Assembly: GCA_024679065.1 (NCBI GenBank)
Contig: JAGIQG010000014.1
Span: 28,148,001-28,212,000, forward strand
DNA: 64,000 nucleotides
Reading direction: 5' to 3'
DNA from: Sphyrna mokarran
Taxonomy: Eukaryota
Shown: positions 11,141-53,009 of the stretch, piece after piece
Layout: each line of letters opens with the position of its first letter
Numbering within the stretch: the stretch's first letter is position 1
Notes under the pieces: model-generated
The model's database searches: none
Told to the model about the DNA's origin: nothing
The model's input: the letters and a program-made list of their open reading frames with translations, nothing else
Position numbers and translations under genes: made by a program

Positions 11141-11262
11141 TCACGATATTCCCGTCACGGCAGCTGGTTGTTAAGCTGTATTCTCTGTACTGTGCTGTCT
11201 GTTCATTCTCTCTCACTGCAATGGACACTGAATTATTCCTGTCTTTATCTGGATTGTTTCAG

Positions 11263-11610
11263 GTTCAGTCCCCTCTGCAAGAGGATCTGAAGTGCGAGGA
11301 TTCCTGGGGCAGTCAGTCACATTGCCCTGCACATACTCTGTTACACAGAATGGTAAAACTGAAATGTGCTGGGGCCGGGGATGGTGCCCTATATCGCACT
11401 GTTCACAAACACTGATTGAAACAAATGGGAAAACTGTAACTTCCAACATCTCCAAAAAATACCACCTTGATGGTAAAATAGAGGAAGGGGATGTATCTCT
11501 CACTGTGGATAATCTCAGTGAAGGAGACAGTGGCTGGTATTGCTGCCGTGTAGAGATATCCGGCCTTCTTAATGATCAGAAAAAGAATTTCAATCTGCTG
11601 GTTTTGGAAG
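11263..11610 (+). CDS. TIM-family (HAVCR1/HAVCR2/TIMD4-like) receptor, IgV exon
   Basis: Acceptor ttgtttcag|, donor G|GTAAGT at 11611, phase 1-1. Encodes GQSVTLPC..MCWGRGWCPISHCS..GDVSLTV..DSGWYCCRVEISGLLNDQK, the six-Cys IgV typical of TIM proteins. Confidence 0.95.
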
Positions 11611-12734
11611 GTAAGTCAGTTCAATATTATCCATTACTAATATTTCTCCCATTTCAATACTGATTCTACATTTATTGTTGATGTCTGTTTATCGAGGGAA
11701 ATTTCAGGATTGTACGGTTCAGAAGGCGGTGCCGTACAGTTTGAATCTGATATCCTATGGAAAAAAAAACTGTTCTCGTCTCTCTGGCCTCCAAATTATT
11801 CATCCAGCCTCTCCCGCTTTCCTCCAGTTTTTCCACTGCGTCCAAACTTTCTCCCTTCAAACTCTCCCCCGTCCCCTCGTCAGCCTTTTCCTTCTTCCAC
11901 CAGCCTCTCCAACCTTCTTCCAGCTTCTTCCCCTCCTTCCAACATCTCCCTCCGATCTCTCTCTTCCTCCAAACTATCCCCACCCACCAGAACTCTCCCA
12001 AAACCCTCCACTCCCTCCAGTCTCCAGGGGCCTCCTGGGGGCCTCCTGAACTCTCTCATGTCTCCCAAACTCTCTTCCACCCTCTCTCTCCCCCTTTAAT
12101 TTCCCCAATATCTAACCTGACGGGAAATTGCTGGGTGAGTGTGCAAAACTGCTTGGCAGGGGATAGAGGAGGAGGAGAAATTTGTTCTGGGACGTGGTTT
12201 GGGGCCAGTGGTGGTGTGGTTGATGGGAAAGAAGTGCTGAAATCTGGGGGTTGGGGAGGAGGGAGGTGGGTGAGCAAGGTGAGGGAAGGGGCAGGTGGGG
12301 CGGCAGAGGGTAGAGTTATACTGGATGAGGTATATGTTGTAAAGAAAGGAATAAAAGTACCTAATCGAAACATGGTCTGCATTATCTCAAGTTTGGTCAC
12401 TTTAATTTTATTTGGAACAAATAAAACTTTGAAATATAGAAAATAAATTCCATAGCGATTTTTTTTATCTGAATTAATTTTTTTTATCTGAATTAATCAT
12501 AAATATTTGAGCATTGTGCTTTGGGACAACTGATTGCATTGATATCGGATGAGCTGTATAATATTAAAAAATAGTGAAATTATTGATTTTGAGTGCAGGT
12601 GAAGTTGAATGATAATCAAATGATTATTTTCAATTGATATGAACACAGTTGAATGCTAATGGTATGAAACTTTTCAGATCAGATAGCTGCAGTAAAGCTT
12701 CCCTAATTTTCTATTTCATTCTCCTTTCAACTGA

Positions 12735-17069: not shown

Positions 17070-17412
17070 GAATCATAGAACCCTACAGTGCAGAAAGAGG
17101 CCATTCAGCCCATCGAGTCTGCACCGACCACAATCCCACCCAGATCTTAACCCCATATCCCTACATATTTATCCACTAATCCCTACATATTTACCCACTA
17201 ATCGCTCTAACCTATGCATCTCAGGACGTGAAGGGGTAATTTTAGCATGGCCAATCAACTTAACCCGCACATCTTTGGATAGTGGGAGGAAACCGGAGCA
17301 GACACGAGGAGAATGTGCAAACTCTACACAGATAGTGACCCAAGCTCGGAATCGAACCCAGGTTCCTGGAGCTGTGAAGTAGCAGTACTAACCACTGCGC
17401 TACTGTGCTGCC
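17070..17412 (-). mobile_element. HE1-like V-SINE
   Basis: A and B boxes, V core and CR1 tail on the reverse strand. Confidence 0.85.
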
Positions 17413-17759
17413 TATTGCCTTATTGAGCCTGCACCAACAACTAATACATATTTAAATCCCATGCACAGGTGTAATTCAATGAAATCTATTTACAGACTTT
17501 TGACTGGACCGCAGCATCCCCCATGATGGGTCCCATTACAAGGGGGCCAGAATATCCCAACCCATATCTGGAATACTGAGTACAGTTTTGGTTTGCATTG
17601 GAATTTGTTCAGGGAATGTTCACTTGGCTGACTCCTGGGAGAAAGGGCTAATCTTAGAAAGAAAAGATGAACAGATTGGGTGTACATCTATGGGAGTTTA
17701 GCAGAATGAGAGCTGATTTTATTGAACCATATATGATTTATGTTATTTTTGGGGACCAC

Positions 17760-18160: not shown

Positions 18161-19873
18161 CCAATTCATTGATGGTTTTGAGCATGAGCACATCCGATCA
18201 TCTTCATAGCCCATGTCTTTCCCCCTTTTGGCCCCGAGACTCTTGTACTTTGACCTGGTTCCATTGCCTCTGTGACCTCTGCACCCTCAATCTTCCAGCC
18301 TGGTGCATTGACCACTTCTGGCACTCGTGCCTCTTCTGCTACTTCCCTTGCCACGCCATTTCCCCCATTCTTATTGCTACCCCCTCACCTTTGGCAGTGC
18401 CCTTCTGGGGCCACTGCCCATTCCTCTTTATCAGTACCCTTTGAGGCCTCGGTCAATTCCCCATGCCAGTACCCCTGGTGCCCTTGCTGCTAACCCTTCA
18501 CCTTTGCCAGTACTTTTGAAGCCTTTACCCCCTTGCCCTTACCAGGATAATCCAAGCGTCTGCCTGTTCTTCTTCACCTTGTCAGTGTCCTTTCTCTCCT
18601 CTGAAAAAGTTGTGTGTTCACTTCCAAACTCCTTCAGAGGTGAGCTCGCCAGCTTCCAATCTTTTAAAAGTAGTTGCGATTTGCGCCATCGTGATATTAT
18701 GTGTCTGTCAGTGGACCTTCAAACGTTGGGGGGAATGATTGCTGCAGAGAGGTTTGATGTTCACTTATGTTCACTTATTGATATTAGCTTTTCAACAACG
18801 CATGGTGAGAAACTCATCATGTCACTTGCAGGACGAGGGGATGACCTCAGAGAGATTTTTTGCTAACATAACATGTCATTTGGGATTATCTGCTCCTGTC
18901 ACCAATCCTGCCCACTGAGAACAGGAACGAAAAATCCTGGCCATAGACTAATTTTCATTTGTTACAATGTGATAGTCCTAGTCAGAGATAAAATCATTGC
19001 CAACAGCCCACCTCAGAGATTTAAATGAAGAATTCCACAAAATATTTGCCAAGGTTAGCATGGGCTCAACTGAACACTTGATCAGCCTGTCACAAAAGAA
19101 GTGAGATAGGTCTTGTCAGGCCTCTGCTAATCCTTCATGATCATGAATTTAAAATAAATCAGAACTGAGACATGCCTGATGCAACTAGCTGGTATTTTGT
19201 TCCTTTCCCTTTTAATTAGGATTTTAAAAAAGTATTTTATGGGATGTGAGCATTGTTGGCTAGGCCAGCATTTATTGCCTCTCCCGATTGATCTTGAGAA
19301 GGTGGCAGTGTGACTCCTTCTGCAGCAGTCCATGCGGTGTAAACAAAGAACAAAACAGCACGGGAAACAGGCCCTCCGGCCCAACGAGCCCGCGCTGCCA
19401 CCCCGATGTTCCCACCTCTACCCGCAATCCCTGTCCATGTTTATAGATCTATGGATTAAAAACCAAATTTGAGTCAATTTAGGGAGAATTTGTTTTGCCA
19501 ATTAGCCCAAGAGCACATCTTTGGGATGTGGGAGGAAACCGGAGCACCCGGAGAAAACCCACGCAAGCACGGGGAGAATGCGCAAACTCCCACAGACACA
19601 GGCCCAATCCATGTATCTGCACAGCACAGCGATAGTCACTGAGCTGTCGTGTTGCCCATCAAATGGTCCAGGTCAAGCGTACACTAACGACGTGAAGCAC
19701 TAGGATACTCTTGAAAAAAAAATCCAAGAGCAGCCCTCTCGCGACCCATCGCGTGTATGCCCCTCGTTAGACAACAAGGTGGACCAAAGCACCTGTAGGA
19801 TAAAAACAAGTACATCAATATCATCATCTATTTACACACTTCCCAGGGACTCCCAAGGCTCATGATCCCTATT

Positions 19874-22750
19874 TTAAATCAGTTTTTCTATACCCCTCCA
19901 TTCCCATTCTGTTCATGTGCCCATCTAAGTATTTCTTAAATAACTCCAGAGTGCCTACCTCCACCACTTTACTTGGCAGCGCATTCCATACCCCCACCAC
20001 CCTCTGTGTGAAAAACTCCCTCTAGCATCCAAATTATACCTTACCCCCCCCTCACTCTAAGCCCATGATCCCTCGTGCTATTTGAGTCCATCCTAGGAAA
20101 AAGCTTAACCCTGTTTACTCTATCTATACCTCTCATAATCTTGTACACCTCTATCAGATCTCCTCTAAGTCTACGTCTTTCTAAGGAAAACAGTCCCAAT
20201 TTGCCTAATCTCTCCTCGTAACTCAGACCTTCCATACCAGGCAGCATCCTGGTAAAACTCCTCTGCACTCTCTCCAGAGTCTCCACGTCCTTCCGGTAGT
20301 AAGGCGACCAGAACTGGATGCAGTATTCCAAATGAGGTCTAACCAGCGTTTTATACAACTGCAACATTAAAGGCCAGCTCTTTTACTCTATACCCCTTCC
20401 TATAAAGGCTAACATACTATATGCTTTCTTCACAACCTTCTCCACTTGCTCTGCCACCTTCAGAGACTTGTTCACCTGCATCCCCAGTTCCCTCTGCATT
20501 TCTATTCTCTTAATAGGTCTACCCTTTATCATATACTTCCCCCCTACATTCTTTCTCCCGAAATGCATCACCTCACATTTCTCAGGATTGAATTCCATCT
20601 GCCATCTGTCTGCCCAAGCTACCAGCCTATCTATGTCCTGCTGCATCCCCTGACAATGCTCCTCACTATCCGCAAGTCCAGCCATCTTTGTATCGTCTGC
20701 AAACTTGCTGATCACTCCACTTACTCCCTCTTCCAAGTCATTTATATATATTACAAATAGAAGAGGTCCCAGTACCGAGCCCTGCTGCACACCACTAGTG
20801 ACCAACCTCCAGCTAGAAAAACACCCTTCCACTATTACTCTCTGTCTCCTATTACCAAGCCAGATCTAGCTACCTGTCCTTGTATCCCATTTGCCTTGAC
20901 CTTCTCAAATAACCTCCCATGAGGGACTTTGTCAAACGCCTTACTAAAATCCATATAGACGACATCAACGGCTCGCCCTTCATCCACCGTTTTCGTCACC
21001 TCCTCAAAAAATTCTACCAGATTTGTAAGGCACGACCTCCCCTTAACAAATCCATGCTGCGTATCCCTAATCAGATCGCAATGCTCTAAGTGCCTATACA
21101 TCCTATCTCTAAGAATCCCTCCAACAGCTTCCCTACCACTGATGTCAAACTCACTGGCCTATAATTTCCAGGGTTATCCCTACTACCCTTTTTAAACAAC
21201 GGTACAACATTAGCTATTCTCCAGTCCTCTGGACCTCACCTGTGTCCAAGGAAGAGACAAAGATTTGCGTCAGAGGCCCAGCAATTTCACCTTGCACCTC
21301 CCTAAGCAGCCTGGGATAAATGCCATTAGGCCCCGGAGATTTATCAGTTTTAATGCTACCTGGAAGCTCTAACACTTCCTCCCTCGGTATGGATATTTCC
21401 CTCAACTGGTCCACAGCTCCCTCAGAGACAGGAGCTGTCAACAAGCCCCTCTCCTTCATGAATACTGACGCAAAATATTCATTCAGGATCTCTGCCATTC
21501 CCTCGGGCTCTAAGCACAGTTCCCCTCCTCTGTCCCTAAGAGGTCCGATTTTTTCCTCTAACCACCCTTTTATTCCTAACATAGGAGTAAAAAGCCTTTG
21601 GATTTTCCTTAATCCTATCTGCCAAAATCATTTCATGCCCCCTTTTTGCCCTTTTAACTCCCCATGTGAGCTCCCTCCTACTCTCTCTATATTCCTCCAA
21701 CGCTGTCTCCGTTCCCAGCTGCTTTGACCTATCATACGCCTCTCTTTTCTTCCTAACCAAGTCCTCAATATCCCTAGTAATCCACGGCTTTCTAATCCTA
21801 CCTTTCCCATCTTTCCTCTTGGCCGGCACATACTTATCTTGCAACATTTTCAGTATTCCCTTGAAAGAGTCCCACATGCCTAGCATGGACTTACCCTCGA
21901 ACAACTGTTCCCAATCAGTATCCCTAAGTTCCTGCCTAATCCGACCATAGTTAGCCTTCCCCCAATTCAACACCCTGCTCTTAGGGCAACAAGCATCCTT
22001 TTCCATCTGAATCCTAAAGTAGACAGAATTGTGGTCACTGTTAGCCACATGTTCCCCTACTACAACATCAACCACCTGCCCTGGCTCATTACTCAGAACT
22101 AAATCCAATATAGCCCCTTCTCTAGTCGGGCTAGCCACATACTGCTCCAACGATCCTTCCAGTAGACATTTTGCAAATTCCTGCCCACCCAAACCCCCAG
22201 CTCTAGGTACCTTCCAATCCACCCTAGGGAGATTAAAATCTCCCACTATAACGACTCTGTTCTTTCTGCACCTATCCAAAATGTCTTTACATATGCCTTC
22301 TTCAACTACCCACGGGCTGCTGGGTGGCCTATAATACACCCCCAGCATAGTAATCGCTCCCTTTCTATTCCTCAACTGCATCCACAGCGACTCCACTCCT
22401 AACTCCTCTGTATTGTCCTCCCTCTGCCGTGATGCTCTCCTTAACTAACAGCGCCACTCCTCCACCTCTTCTGGACCCTCCTCTGTCACTCCTGAAACAC
22501 TTTTACCCAGGAATATTCACCTGTTACTGCTCCCCTTCCTTTAACCAAGTCTCCGTCACCGCAACCACATCCAAGTTCCTCACAAACATTAAGGCCCTAG
22601 GTTCATCCGTTTTTCCTGTTACACTCCTCGCATTGAAACAGACACACTCCAGACCTCCAAGTCCACTCGGAACCTCCTTCTTCCCGGTATATTTCTTCTC
22701 ATCCAAGCTTACTGTATCTCCCATCTTGTTCTCTACTGAGCTATTGGTCT
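19874..22750 (-). pseudogene. CR1 ORF2 (APE endonuclease plus reverse transcriptase), frameshifted
   Basis: Consecutive ORF pieces carry NARSV, VTETWL, YYRPP, GDFN, SDHN, QHGFVKGRSC, DFSKAFDKVPH, QGSVLGP, FADDTK and RPHLEYC. Confidence 0.92.
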
Positions 22751-22772
22751 CAGCCCCTCCCCCCCCTCCATA

Positions 22773-23663
22773 TTAGTTTAAATCCTGCCGAAATACGCCA
22801 GCTAACCTTCCAGCTAAGATATTTACGCCCTTCCCATTTAAGTGTTTCCCGTCCCTTCTGTACAGGTGCCCTTCTTTTACAAAGACTTCCCAGTTATCCA
22901 CAAATACGAAACCCTCTGCCCGACACCAGTCCTTCAGCCACGCATTCAGCTGTAGGATCTCCTTTCTCCTGGCTCTGCTATTACCCGGCCCTGGAAGCAG
23001 TCCTGAGATCGCCACCCTGGAGGCCCTGCTCCTCAGCCTACCCCCCAACTCCCTGAATTGCCTTCTTATATCCTCCCTGCACTTCCTTCCTACATCCTTC
23101 TCTCCTACGTGAATAATTACATCCGCCTGGGTCCCCTCACCTTTCAAGATGCCCTCTACCCTGTCAGGCACATCTTGCACCCCTGCTCCAGGAAGGCAAA
23201 TTACCATTCTGGAGTCCCACCTTGGACCACAGAAGCGTCTATCTATTCCTTTAACCCTCCCATCCCCCACCACTATCTCCCTTCTAGCCCCTTTCCTCCC
23301 CTTTGAGGCACTCTGGTCCTCGTGCCTTGCCTTTTTTACCCCTTCGCCCTCGATATTTTGGGGGGCTGCCACTGGGGAAGTCTTTGGACTGTCTCCCCTC
23401 TCCTTTCTCCCCTTCCTGACAGTAATCCACCTGTAAGGGTCACGTTCCCCCCACTTAGGCTCCGGCTCCGCCACCTTACTCTGCCTCCCTTCCACGATTC
23501 CCTCATTCTCCCTGACTAAAAATGCATCTTCCAATCGCCGCTCTAGTTGCTTGACCCGAGCCCTCAGATGATGCAGCTCCAAACACTTGACGCATACGTG
23601 GACTTTCGGGAGAGATCTTGCCTCCAGGAACTCCCACATATGACACCGTACAAGGTGAGGCAT
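22773..23663 (-). CDS. CR1 ORF1p: Zn-finger/leucine zipper plus SGNH esterase-like domain
   Basis: CHMWE..HVCVKC, heptad LELHHLRARVKQLERRL, then IVVGDG..CLPGA..IHVGEKD..DGKHLN; open for 296 aa. Confidence 0.85.
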   Translation of the reverse strand: MPHLVRCHMWEFLEARSLPKVHVCVKCLELHHLRARVKQLERRLEDAFLVRENEGIVEGRQSKVAEPEPKWGERDPYRWITVRKGRKERGDSPKTSPVAAPQNIEGEGVKKARHEDQSASKGRKGARREIVVGDGRVKGIDRRFCGPRWDSRMVICLPGAGVQDVPDRVEGILKGEGTQADVIIHVGEKDVGRKCREDIRRQFRELGGRLRSRASRVAISGLLPGPGNSRARRKEILQLNAWLKDWCRAEGFVFVDNWEVFVKEGHLYRRDGKHLNGKGVNILAGRLAGVFRQDLN

Positions 23664-23957
23664 CTTCCCTTAATCCCTGCCATTGTCCTGAACACCTTTG
23701 GAGGTGTGAATACCAATGGAAAACCAATAGCACACTGTGCCTGAGCCTCCTGTCGCCCAAGCCCCGCGAGCCACAGCCCTTATATCTCTCACTCTGCTTC
23801 CCTATTCACTCACACTGCCCGCTCCCGACGCTGCCCGCTGTCTACTGCCACTTTCTTTTTATACTCCCCAGTTTCCTTCCCAGCTAGCCCCAGGCCTAAC
23901 TACAGCAGCAAAAAGCACTCAAAAAGAGAGAGAGAAAAAAAAGCAAATTGAAAAATT

Positions 23958-30622: not shown

Positions 30623-31240
30623 GAACAAAGAACAAAGAACAAAACAGCATGGGAAACAGGCCCTTCGGCCCAACGAGCCCGTGCCGACAACCCGATGTTC
30701 CCACCTCTACCCGCAATCCCTGTCCATGTTTATAGATCTATGGATTAAAAACCAAATTTGAGACAATTTAGGGAGAATTTGTTTTGCCAATTAGCCTAAG
30801 AGCACATCTTTGGGATGTGGGAGGAAACCGGAGCGCCCAGAGAAAACCCACGCAAGCACAGGGAAAATGCGCAAACTCCACAGACACAGGCCCAAATCCA
30901 TGTATCTGCACAGCACAGCGATAGTCACTGAGCTGTCGTGTTGCCCATCAAATGGTCCAGTCAAGCGTACACTAACGACGTGAAGGACTAAGATACTCTC
31001 GAAAAAAATCCAAGAGCAGTCCTCTCACGACACATCGCGTGTCTGCCCCTTGTTAGACAACAAGGTGGACCAAAGCACCTGTAGGATAAAAACAAGTACA
31101 TCAATATCATCATCTATTTACACACTTCCCAGGGACTCCCAAGGCTCATGATCCCTATTTTAAATCAGTTTTCTGTACCCCTCCATTCCCACTCTGTTCA
31201 TGTGCCCATCTAAATATTTCTTAAATAACTCCAGAGTACC
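30623..31240 (-). mobile_element. 5'-truncated copy of the V-SINE-tailed CR1
   Basis: Near-identical to 19342-19955 across the whole 3'UTR and the end of ORF2. Confidence 0.92.
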
Positions 31241-45109: not shown

Positions 45110-46953
45110 GCAGTGTTCTGGTCTGCAATAGCACTCATATCCACACAGACAGTTACAGATTGCTGATTAGAATGCGAATCGATACATCTAACCTGCTATT
45201 CAAGTGTTAAAGTGGCTAACAATGTGTGTGAAGGGAATCCTGAGCATTGGTTAGAGAATTGTGTATTTTCGCCAGACAGCACAGTAAGTGAGGTTTTTTG
45301 CTAACCCAGGCAAGTTACGGGGGTTACAGATAGTGTGTCATGAAGCCAAGATCCCTGTTAAGACCGTCCTCATGTGTGCGGAACTTGGCTATCAGTCTCT
45401 GCTCAGCAACTCTGCGCTGTCATGTGTCACGAAGGCCCCCTTGAAGAACATTTACCCGCAGGTCGGAGGCCGAATGCCCATGACTGCTGAAATGTTCGCC
45501 CACAGGAAGGGAACTGTTTTGCCTGGTAATTGTTGAGCGATGCTCATTCATCCGCTGTCGTAGTGTCTGCATGGTCTCCCCAATATACCATGCTTCGGGA
45601 CATCCTTTCTTGCAACGTATTAGGTAGACAACGTTGGACGAGTTGCAAGAGTATGTACCGTGTACCTGGTGAATGGTATCCTCACGTTTGATGATGTCGT
45701 CCATGTCTATGATCTGGCATGTCTTGCAGAGGTTGCTGTGGCAGGGTTGTGTGGTATTGTGGTCACTGTTCTCCTGAAGGTTGGGTAGTTTGCTGCGAAC
45801 AATGATCTGTTTGAGTTTGTGCGGTTGTCTGAAAGCAAGAAGTGGGGGGGTGGGGATGGCCCTAGCGAGATGTTCATCATCATCAATGACGTTGAAGACT
45901 CTGGATTGTCCCTATGGACAAGCTCTCCGTATACACAGAATTTGCTCAGATGAGGAGGATCGTGACAGATACCTCCAGACGCTGAAGGATGCCCTCGTGA
46001 GAACAGGATATGGCGCTCGACTCATCGATCGACAGTTCTGACGTGCCACAGCGATAAACCGCACTGACCTCCTCAGAAGATGAACATGGGACACGGTGGA
46101 CAGAGTACCCTTTGTTGTCCAGTACTTCCCCGGAGTGGAGAAGCTACGACATCTTTTCCGGAGTCTTCAACATGTCATTGATGACAATGAACATCTCGCT
46201 AGAGCCATCCCCACCCCCCCACTTCTTGCTTTCAGACAACCGCACAACCTCAAACAGATCATTGTTCGCAGCAAACTACCCAACCTTCAGGAGAACAGTG
46301 ACCACAATACCACACAACCATGCCACAGCAACCTCTGCAAGACATGCCAGATCATAGACATGGACGACATCATCAAACGTGAGGATACCATTCACCAGGT
46401 ACCCGGTACATACTCTTGCAACTCGGCCAATGTTGTCTACCTAATACGTTGCAAGAAAGGATGTCCCGAAGCATGGTACATTGGGGAGACCATGCAGGCA
46501 CTACGACAGCGGATGAATGAGCATCGCTCAACAATCACCAGGCAAAACAGTTCCCTTCCTGTGGGCGAACACTTCAGCAGTCGTGGGCATTCGGCCTCCG
46601 ACCTGCGGTAAATGTTCTTCAGGGGGGCCTTCGGGACACACAACAGCGCAGAGTCGCTGAGCAGAGACTGATAGCCAAGTTCCGCACACATGAGGACAGT
46701 CTTAATAGGGATCTTGGCTTCATGACACACTATCTGTAACCCCTGTAACTTGCCTGGATTAGCAAAAAACCTCACTTACTGTGCTGTCTGGAGGAAATAC
46801 ACAATTCTCTAACCAATGCTCAGGATTCCCTTCACACACATTGTTAGCCACTTTAACACTTGAATAGCAGGTTAGATGTAAGGATTTGCATTCTAATCAG
46901 CAATCTGTAACCGTCTGTGTGGATATGAGTGCTATTGCAGACCAGAACACTGC

Positions 46954-49155: not shown

Positions 49156-51252
49156 ATCTCTTCCAAAATCCATGCAGAACTTAAAAAATATTATATATCC
49201 AAATACTAGATTTCTCCTTTTATATCTTTGAGTAAAGATTTCATTATCTTTCCTGCCCTCAATTTAACTGGTCTACAGCTCCTGGATTATATTTTTATCT
49301 TGGAATACATTATACTGCCTCTCTTTTTCCCTAGTCTATCTTGGCTTGAGTGGATGTTTCAACTTCTAGATTTGATCATTATTTATAGATGGCAGACAGA
49401 TCTTAAGTGTTATATATTTTTGATTTATTTTTCTAATGCCATGTCTACTGCATTAGTTTTCCTTGTGAATACTGAAGCAAAGTAATAATTCAATATTTCT
49501 GCTATTTTGCCTTCACTGCCTGAGTTTATCTTGTGCATTCCTTGAGAACTTACTTACATCCTGCTTTTCCTTGTTATTTATGCATTTGTCGCTTAATAAA
49601 ACATTTTTCTGTTCAACTGTTCTTTCGCATTCATTCCTAACCTATTAGTATTCCCTTTTGGCATCTTCACCTTGATTGCCCATAGACATAATCTATATTT
49701 TTTTTTCTGATTTTTCAATTATTTATACCCTTTTTCAATCATGTGAATTTGGGTGAAATCTTACCAAAAAAAATGGCTGTTGGGATTCAACTGAAAACTA
49801 GTATTCCTCTATCCAGTTTTCTGTCCAAATCTCATGAAATTTTGGCTAAGAAAAATACAAGGTAGTATGTTTCACACTGCTCCTGACAGTCATCACCATC
49901 ATCCTCCCCCAACAGTTAAAGGGTACCCCGTCCCCTCAACATTTATCTCCACTCCCACTCCATTATTACCAGCATCTCTCCCCTTTCTCCACCACTACAC
50001 ACAGGCATCTCCTCTCCCCTAAACCTAAGAGGCTCTCACTAAGGCTTACCCCAGGCGCAGGTTGGTATGGTGCCAGTCTGGCAATTCCCTATGCCAGGGA
50101 CAGTGCCAGGGCACTACCTGGTCACATCTCTCTTCTCCAGTATCTTTGCACTCCCAAACAAAACCCCCAAAAGATTCACTCCTGGGTGATCCTATTGTAA
50201 ATTTTGCTGACATAACATGCACAAAAGTTTAGTAAAGGGGGAAGATTTGGGCAGGGCGAGTAATGATATTAACATTTATTTAAATTGCTATAAATCAGGG
50301 TTCTCACTCATCATGAGGCAAGGGGCAATGAAAATCAAAAACGGCCATCTTGCTGATGAGATTTATGATTTCTGGGTTTTGCCGGACCTTGGACCTCAGA
50401 CCTCTCCTGCTGATCCTGTGGCTGGAGTGGAGGGTCAAGACCGTCCCCTGCATTCTTGGCGAGTTTGTTCTCTCTTTGAGCAGTATGGTCCTCCTGAAAT
50501 TTATTCATCACTTTTGATATTACTTTCAGCTGCTGTTCTCTTTGTCAATTTTTTTCTTTACGGTTTACCTTCCCTCGTTCCATTCATAGCTCCTCGAAAT
50601 CAACTTATTTTCCAAACTGAGTTTGATTGTATGTCTTTTATCGAACTATCATTATTTGGTCATTTATTAGCCTCGAATCAACGTGAATGAGATTGTCAGT
50701 ATTTATGAGCAGATGACAGAGCAACATCGGATGAGCAGTAGATGCAGTCAAACACAACTGGGTTTAATTAGGAATGATGGTGGAGTATTGGGAGAGTGTG
50801 GGCAGGGAAAACTGAGCAGGAGTCGCACCGCATTGGAGTTCTGGTTCTGAAAACTGTTCCCAAATATCTTGGTGAATGCTTGATGCAGGAATCCTGCCTA
50901 CTCACTCATTAACCTAGTAAATATTCTTGCCAATGTGAATTGTGCAAAGCCAATTATCCAAGTGGACTGTAATGTAATGGGATTTTAGTGAGATTTGGGG
51001 GAGATGGTGGATAATAATAGTCACTGGAGAAGTAAAAGCCCAGGGATTGGGGAATTGGGTTTGAATCTCACCATGGTAGATGGGGGAATTTAAAATTTAA
51101 TACATATCTGGAGTTAAAATTCTAGTGATTACCATGAAATTACTGTTGATTGTCATTAAATCTGTCTGGTTCATTAATGTCCTTAAGGGAAGGAAATCTG
51201 ACATTTTTCAAAGGTCTAATTAATAAGAAAAATCAGTAGTGACTTAAGGATA

Positions 51253-52634
51253 TAAATGACTTGGAAGAGGGAGTAAGTGGAGTGATCAGCAAGTTTGCAG
51301 ATGATACAAAGATGGCTGCACTTGCGGATCGTGACAAACATTGTCAGGCAATGCAGCAGGACATAGATATTCTGGTAGCTTGTGCAGACAGATGGCAGGT
51401 GGAATTCAATCTTGATAAAAGTGAGGTGATGCATTTCGGGACAAAGAATGTAGGGGGGAGGTATATGATAAAGGGTAGACCTATTAAGAGTATAGAAATG
51501 CAGAGGGACCTGGGGGTGCAGGTGAACAAGTCTCTGAAGGTGGCTGAGCAAATGGAGAAGGTTGTGAAGAAAGCATATAGTATGCTGGCCTTTTTAGGAA
51601 AGGGTATAGAGTACAAGAGCTGGCCTTTAATGTTGCAGTTGTATAAAACGTTGGTTAGACCTCATTTGGAATACTGCGTCCAGTTCTGGTCGCCTTACTA
51701 CCGGAAGGACGTGGAGACGCTGGAGAGAGTGCAGAGGAGGTTTACCAGAATGCTGCCTGGTATGGAAGGTCTGAGTTACGAAGACAGATTAGGCAAATTG
51801 GGACTGTTTTCCTCTGAAAGACGTAGACTTAGAGGAGATCTAATAGAGGTGTACAAGATTATGAAGGGGATAGATAAACAGGGTTAAGCTTTTTCCTAGG
51901 ATGGACTCAAATAGCACGAGGGGTCACAGGCTTAGGATGAGAGGGGTAAGGTATAATTTGGATACTAGAGGGAGTTTTTTCACACAGAGGGTGGTGGGGG
52001 TATGGAATGTGCTGCCAAGTAAAGTGATGGAGGCAGGCACTCTGGAGTTATTTAAGAAATACTTAGATGGGCACATGAACAGAATGGGAATGGAGGGGTA
52101 TAGAAAACTGATTTAAAATAGGGATCATGAGCCTGGGGAGTCCCTGGGAAGTGTGTAAATAGATGATGATATTGATGTACTTGTTTTTATCCTACAGGTG
52201 CTTTGGTCCACCTTGTTGTCTAACAAGGGGCATATACGCAATGGGTCGTGAGAGGGCTGCTCTTGGATTTTTTTTGGAAGTATCCTAGTGCTTCACGTCG
52301 TTAGTGTACGCTTGACCTGGACCATTTGATGGGCAACACGACAGCTCAGTGACTATTGCTGGGCTGTGCAGATACATGGATTTGGGCCTGTGTCTGTGGG
52401 AGTTTGCGCATTCTCCCCGTGCTTGCATGGGTTTTCTCCGGGCATTCCGGTTTCCTCCCACATCCCAAAGATGTGCTCTTAGGCTAACTGGCAAAACAAA
52501 TTCTCCTTAAATTGTCTCAAATTTGGTTTTTTAATCCATAGATCTATAAACATGGACAGGGATCGCAGGTAGAGGTGGGAACATCTCGTGGGAACAGAAC
52601 GAGAAGGCCTGCTTCTCGTGCTGTTTTGTTCTTT
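51253..52634 (+). mobile_element. 5'-truncated copy of the V-SINE-tailed CR1 (RT C-terminus plus 3'UTR)
   Basis: ORF 51261-51887 nearly identical to the 20041-20832 pieces; same 3'UTR in the opposite orientation. Confidence 0.93.
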
Positions 52635-53009
52635 ATTCAGCAGACTTTGCCAATGACTCCCAAAGGCCACCCAGCAAAACCCAGTCATGTTTGCCCTTGG
52701 CTTCAAATGATGGGATGTCCCTCATCGACAGATCAATAAAGGGCCTGACAGAAGGGCAAGGGAAGTCCACACTGAAACTCACCATCCCTTGCCTCTGCCC
52801 CCCCCCATCCCTTTTTGCCTGGCACCCCATACCACCTGCAACTCAAATGGGCACTGGAATTTGGTGTTGATCCTGGCGTTGGGCCTCAGTGTAAGTAATG
52901 AGTTTAAAAGTAGGATGCATTTAGAGGAACGATGTTGAAAACAAACACCACTTGGTCATTTACAAAATTTCCAAGCCATGTATTTGCAATTTGAGGCTTA
53001 TGAGCCTCT

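Follow-up and report, generated by a model that had tools for sequence, protein, structure and literature searches.

The 3′UTR of a CR1-type LINE in Sphyrna mokarran carries a domain of about 120 nt which, on the evidence of computed folding, is supported as an RNA-level structure of no known family. We think it probable that this fold is real and has been selected at the RNA level. The window analysed is a stretch of 64,000 nt (assembly GCA_024679065.1, contig JAGIQG010000014.1, positions 28,148,001 to 28,212,000), numbered here from its first letter. A preliminary description had located the domain at three places in the window, and its coordinates and strands are correct: 19786-19664 and 30953-31072 on the minus strand and 52204-52324 on the plus strand. 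A 33-mer of the adjacent SINE-derived head has 16,742 exact copies in the genome (2.77 Gb).

The first domain copy lies in a full-length CR1-type LINE (19342..23955, minus strand) whose 5′ end is approximate and whose ORF2 is broken by stops and frameshifts. ORF1 (22773..23669, minus) has an SGNH/GDSL esterase-like domain (Pfam PF13472, E = 1e-8), and ORF2 survives in pieces (19876..22444, minus, low end approximate) that match an endonuclease (PF14529) and a reverse transcriptase (PF00078); an esterase-type ORF1, this ORF2 pair and a tail stem-loop ending in short tandem repeats mark the element as CR1-type. The natural ORF2 stop of this copy is about 88 nt before the helix P1 that closes the domain, and the 3′UTR then runs in the order linker, U-rich/CAG tract, domain, tRNA-derived head with conserved core, variable spacer and tail hairpin. 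The tail stem-loop with its (GTTCTTT)n end (19342..19400, minus; z = −3.29) is expected to be the ORF2p recognition site; it is separate from the domain, about 270 nt downstream. The window's other CR1 families have the same type of tail on a short UTR that lacks such a cassette. The two further copies of the composite element are 5′-truncated: 30631..31240 (minus, 95% identical) and 51250..52637 (plus, 92% identical).

Some neighbours of these elements were also recorded. Window positions 45420-46611 hold tandem ORFs with a GIY-YIG-like motif, presumably as in Penelope-like elements. An Ig V-type exon at 11232-11663 (plus), which we take to resemble TIM/HAVCR proteins, lies near a proline-rich reading frame at 12056-12496 (minus). 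At locus L082 a copy of the element sits in sense orientation in an intron, after an exon upstream of it whose translation presumably resembles nicastrin.

For comparison beyond the window we grouped 198 sequences, gathered by searches with diverged copies, into subfamilies C0 (13), C1 (30), A (81), D (31), B2 (11) and B1 (23), with nine unassigned. Shared changes, not a tree, suggest the order C0, C1, then A, and D with B. The tRNA B-box is retained in C0, where the sampled copies show the most decay and the full domain is already in place. Two runs from other organisms (X9 and X6) gave mainly subfamily-A-like letters; runs with small word shares were set aside, and the RNA-type runs X4 and X16 consist of contigs.

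The sense strand of the window domain folds at −53.7 kcal/mol (z = −4.88), and none of 200 shuffled sequences folded as well; the antisense strand is weaker (z = −2.87). The computed fold, which is the same inside the 731-nt UTR, consists of three parts, all on the minus strand: the closing helix P1 (5′ strand UGGUCCA at 19780..19786, 3′ strand UGGACCA at 19664..19670), an 18-nt side hairpin P2 (CCUUGUU-GUCU-AACRAGG, 19762..19779), and one long irregular stem P3 of about 40 bp with a 2-nt bulge, two internal loops and an apical loop (19676..19761). In the oldest subfamily consensus P2 forms a perfect palindrome of 18 nt, and in subfamily B it is missing; the three-way junction is present in four of the six subfamilies and gone in B. 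The apical loop of P3 differs in every branch and is a U-run in the window copy; a subfamily A variant with a C-run there (about a fifth of the matches listed) indicates that the loop sequence is free. As a separate observation, AGUGCUUC (window 19692-19703, minus), which we take to resemble the miR-430/302 seed family, occurs on the 3′ side of P3 in A, C and D; it is changed in B and does not lie at a canonical cut position.

All the complementary segments named in the preliminary description are found in the sequence, and its P1 (UGGUCCA/UGGACCA) and apical CUCUUG/CAAGAG stem are right. Its CUAACGA/UCGUUAG helix and CGCGA hairpin have a pairing probability of 0.00 in the A and C1 consensuses, and a fold of the window copy constrained to its helices is 6.8 kcal/mol less stable (−46.9 versus −53.7). 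The CUAACGA/UCGUUAG helix is paired at 7 of 7 positions only in subfamily A (5, 5, 4, 2 and 0 of 7 in the other five), and the fold as then drawn leaves 81.8% of alignment cells paired with one double-changed pair (241 of 500 shuffles), which amounts to no covariation signal. Of the three-way junction it proposed, the junction survives and the topology does not, the real parts being P1, the side hairpin CCUUGUU/AACRAGG and one long stem. It had also read the differences among copies as post-insertion decay, which fails for G28A and G59A, shared source-level variants found in 29 and 10 of 74 sampled copies, respectively; G28A breaks the CUAACGA/UCGUUAG helix and perfects P2.

Three lines of evidence indicate that the fold is conserved by its shape. 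First, the same minimum-energy fold is obtained for all six subfamily consensuses, which are up to 36% apart, with P2 lost in B. Sense z-scores of these consensuses range from −2.0 to −5.5 and antisense from +0.2 to −2.4, the sense strand being better in six of six, with the oldest consensuses at only about −2. In local context the mean pair probability is 0.79-0.96, and individual real copies agree.

Second, when seven real copies are aligned, 92.5% of cells are paired and eight pairs carry changes in both partners (1 of 500 shuffles). Half of these double changes (36-112, 40-108, 46-100 and 71-76) stand as subfamily-level events, and for the first three the intermediates are visible (C-G > U-G > U-A, U-A > U-G > C-G and G-C > A.C > A-U); at 71-76, D and B have each closed a mismatch in their own way. 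The other four are weak: two hinge on the alignment of B's remodelled P2, one is CpG decay in a single copy and one occurs in a single copy. All of this covariation is drawn from a single lineage within one genome; since D and B share an ancestor, it represents about two independent paths.

Third, when the substitutions of each branch were randomised on C1, the fold was kept as well as observed in 3 of 300 trials for A and in none of 300 for D, B2 and B1, and as many pairs were kept in 5 (A), 11 (D), 0 (B2) and 0 (B1) of 300. Six control tests on the end of ORF2 gave 12-76 of 150 on shared fold; for pairs kept, two of the six gave 1-2 of 150. The domain's antisense fold is partly preserved as well (0, 4 and 1 of 150). 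The fold-preservation signal is strong, yet it is not purely strand-specific and the control is not fully clean. Dead copies decay neutrally, with paired columns not spared (0.0186 versus 0.0116 per site), so any selection acted on source elements.

The domain has changed and its surroundings have been deleted over the same history. Divergence between subfamilies is 2-36% in the domain and 2-10% in the SINE core; between D and B the domain changed by 0.23-0.26 versus 0.14 at ORF2 third positions, with its shape kept. Domain length held at 123-134 nt while the linker lost about 150 nt. The distance from the ORF2 stop to P1 went from about 185 nt in C0 through 167, 110 and 88 to about 28 or less in B, where the reading frame near the stop varies with a T-run; the tract and the stem stayed. 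In C0/C1, the older and longer linker that precedes the tract includes additional short palindromes, along with antisense donor-like motifs, most of which the younger subfamilies have deleted. At loci L053, L147, L153 and L349, copies are joined head-to-head or carry short 5′ inversions, which suggests fold-back or twin-priming in this CR1 family. The spacer of the 5S rDNA units at L160-L163 and L170 (e.g. L160:2216-2238, minus) contains a copy of the LINE 3′ end, which seems to have been amplified along with the array; L160 also holds a B-type copy.

The main rival to selection on the fold is template-switch repair of a palindrome, in which the hairpin is functionless, whether captured or made by fold-back, and reverse transcriptase copies one arm from the other so as to mimic compensation. 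The perfect P2 palindrome of the oldest consensus fits this idea, as do the linker palindromes, the short inversions at 5′ junctions (L153 among them), the partly preserved antisense fold, and several changes that convert G-U or A.C to Watson-Crick. Arm copying, however, yields perfect pairs only, and about six changes go from Watson-Crick to G-U versus one or two to A.C (small numbers), while bulges and internal loops persist. The steady length of the domain beside the shrinking linker and the better sense-strand fold in every consensus also speak against it. We consider template-switch repair unlikely and prefer selection on the RNA fold.

Downstream of the domain lies a V-SINE-like block (19488..19657, minus), recognised by alignment to free SINEs and made up of a decayed tRNA-derived head and a conserved central domain. 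The C0 head aligns to the free SINE at 17326-17413 with a score of 68 (0 of 1000 shuffles), which identifies it as tRNA-derived; the B-box is absent from C1, A, D and B through an 18-nt deletion early in the lineage. The central part contains a 93-nt core, 2-10% divergent between subfamilies and common to the free SINE copies, which may correspond to the published V-domain of about 80 bp. The tRNA-headed SINEs of this genome presumably correspond to the HE1 V-SINE of sharks and rays. That name stands in a table of PMC3747384, and a passage of PMC4824008 states the function of SINE central domains as unknown. Both the window (19488-19657) and the C0 loci L062, L076 and L081 show an autonomous LINE whose UTR has a V-SINE body as a fixed part.

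The preliminary description had named a palindromic MITE as the match that would undo its reading, and such an origin is excluded. No free-standing copies of the domain were found, and the free SINEs in the window are without it; among 411 domain 3′ ends, from loci mostly picked by domain or head queries, 408 continue into the SINE head and the other three into its remnant. Nor were older or free-standing relatives of the domain found in 0.68-1.04 Mb of loci, phage records, and metagenome or viral contigs. Three of 69 C0 copies begin 3-4 nt before the head.

Upstream of the domain, a U-rich tract ending in CAG (19793..19819, minus) resembles a 3′ splice acceptor. It is kept in all six subfamilies although the upstream linker is rewritten, with YAG|G, 71-88% pyrimidines and a branch-like motif in each. 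The signals kept would suit a working acceptor with the stem in a terminal exon, serving exon trapping or a spliced non-coding LINE RNA. Against this, 5′ junctions show no excess at the AG among the best 100 of 132 matches, being spread over the ten bases before it; the junction loci inspected are ordinary truncations, none of which joins a LINE donor or exon; and in four contig sets, which cannot show absence, the one joint near the site is not GT-AG. Splicing at the tract is very unlikely. By inspection, no frame behind the AG is open in all subfamilies, which gives no sign of a coding origin. The placement of a pyrimidine-rich tract near the stop is that of PTBP1-type NMD-shielding elements.

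The preliminary description found no hammerhead core and no assignable family, and we agree: Rfam gives no match on the domain above chance level. The window copy has zero matches at E ≤ 10, and B2, C0 and D have chance-level matches only, five off the domain and one overlapping it; the latter is to a pair-free lncRNA model, at 10 bits against a cut-off of 70. Its suggestion of a captured ncRNA, taken as 5S-like, failed on model and alignment alike. Local alignment to 5S rRNA is not above shuffles, and the oldest copies lack the resemblance; lenient gaps give 6-153 of 1000 for the derived B (marginal), with A and the ancestral C not significant. A covariance model built from the genome's own 5S, with filters off, was blank on the domain in the window and 21 loci. 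The domain is also not an L2/CR1 tail stem-loop, since its position is internal, its apical loop is unconserved and a separate tail hairpin exists.

A further suggestion was a ribozyme or processing element, which we weighed as a self-cleaving ribozyme or a Drosha-type site that processes LINE RNA. The three-way junction in four of six subfamilies and a stem length near that of pri-miRNAs make this conceivable, and the Microprocessor cuts a hairpin in mammalian L1 RNA, in the 5′UTR case (PMC8535693). Rfam has no ribozyme or miRNA match on the domain, inspection for hammerhead and HDV core motifs finds neither, and B has no junction left. Cutting would release a fragment that bears the tail, copies of which should pile up at one site. 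Four column intervals were searched genome-wide (−10 to 0, 40-53, 77-87 and 98-108, about 45 of the domain's 134 columns plus 10 before), using the best 100 of 132, 516, 193 and 277 matches, respectively, sorted by eye; 5′ truncations per base came roughly to 39, 23, 35 and 37, an even spread with no peak, the matches for columns 40-53 being mostly indel-shifted copies.

The smaller samples are uneven in opposite ways. In C0 (69 of 70), twelve 5′ ends fall in columns 80-109, six of them at 101-109, and two in 40-79, whereas in A (85 rows from 90 regions) none falls in 57-138 and six fall in 43-56; the genome-wide intervals confirm neither pattern, and we reject a footprint of cleavage or reverse transcriptase stalling. 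As regards a pri-miRNA, the arms diverge freely and no genomic pile-up appears at columns 98-108. Cleavage at the domain is very unlikely.

The stem might instead offer ORF1p or ORF2p a second, specific place to dock, required for RNP assembly or template delivery rather than for stability. L2-tail stems with bulges and U-U mismatches are needed for retrotransposition (PMC1636434), and 66 of the domain's 134 columns are invariant over the seven aligned rows. The canonical tail hairpin, however, already lies about 270 nt downstream, the loop sequences are unconserved, and many copies start inside or below the domain, with 5′ ends that show no consistent stall pattern. We regard such specific docking as rather doubtful.

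Among the roles listed in the preliminary description, protein loading or nuclease shielding is the likeliest. We put at about even the chance that the domain is a non-catalytic, shape-recognised, stop-proximal cis element serving to protect or handle the LINE's RNA at full length (stability or RNP handling), a role argued from position and analogy. The shape is kept while loops and arm letters are free, the junction is dispensable and there is no cut mark, which points to generic long-stem recognition rather than catalysis. In every younger branch the tract and stem have been drawn towards the ORF2 stop, which favours a stop-proximal protective element; the spacer shrinkage fits plain compaction too. 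Because sister CR1 families and free SINEs have been able to spread without it, the domain is no general requirement for the mobility of CR1 elements.

A fuller account, which we offer as possible but tentative, is that a CR1 swallowed its SINE parasite together with a host fragment, and that this fragment now acts as an RSE-like, stop-proximal RNA-shielding element favouring the LINE's own ORF2p; RSE is the retroviral name for a stop-proximal element that shields RNA from NMD. Under the favoured reading as well, an ancestral CR1 would have exchanged its short 3′UTR for a captured piece (linker, U-rich/CAG tract, domain and a V-SINE with the shared tail), making its UTR several times longer. 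Selection on active source elements would then have kept the fold and the U-rich tract while the rest eroded. A polypyrimidine-binding protein might sit on the tract, and a double-stranded-RNA binder or a general stem-binding region of ORF2p on the stem; such binding would protect the RNA with its long UTR against decay and, in competition with free SINEs carrying the same tail, promote loading of the element's own ORF2p, with priming of reverse transcription staying with the separate tail hairpin. Both partners have analogies in the literature: RNAs with long UTRs are shielded from NMD when PTBP1 is bound close to the stop codon (PMC4764554), and ORF2p of L2-clade LINEs has been proposed to recognise stems generally via its cTBR (PMC4176376).

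LINE 3′UTRs are thought to need little beyond a short tail hairpin. Here a successful CR1 lineage, with at least 16,742 copies, kept a second and much larger fold while its letters changed and its surroundings were deleted, and a disarmed V-SINE became fixed inside the UTR of this CR1. Should the element indeed protect or load the RNA, it would illustrate how a retrotransposon copes with a long 3′UTR and with SINEs that share its tail. It also supplies compensatory variants in a naturally occurring series and a LINE in which the unexplained V-domain can be studied.

In article searches we found neither this domain nor a CR1 with a V-SINE fixed in its 3′UTR described, nor, in the literature searched, a report of an NMD-shielding element of the PTBP1 type in a LINE; PMC5499810 treats other chondrichthyan SINEs. 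The CR1 family itself may already be catalogued. What appears to be new is the predicted shape-conserved domain in a composite CR1 3′UTR, as a variant of the cis-acting RNA structures of LINEs.

Four known systems invite comparison. Pri-miRNA hairpins such as the L1 5′UTR case (PMC8535693) share a long imperfect stem, a similar length and a small apical loop; the domain differs in its two large internal loops and unconserved arms, Rfam gives no miRNA match, and 5′ ends do not accumulate where a cut would be expected. With the PTBP1-bound stop-proximal NMD shields (PMC4764554) it shares a pyrimidine-rich tract behind the stop, a long 3′UTR and a structured neighbour, although the tract here is short and U-rich and the likeness is one of position and composition. 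The HE1 V-SINE and HER1 LINE of sharks and rays (PMC3747384, PMC4824008) have the same tRNA-derived head, central domain and CR1-type tail; unlike them, the SINE body here is fixed in the 3′UTR of an autonomous LINE, has lost its B-box and has a new domain in front. Finally, the domain is about three times longer than the tail stem-loops of UnaL2 and ZfL2-1/2, lies about 270 nt upstream of the real tail hairpin, has no conserved loop and, unlike L2/CR1 tail stem-loops, is absent from sister CR1 families; it resembles the UnaL2 and ZfL2-1/2 tails in being a cis-acting irregular stem of a LINE 3′UTR whose sequence can change as long as its shape stays (PMC1636434, PMC4176376).
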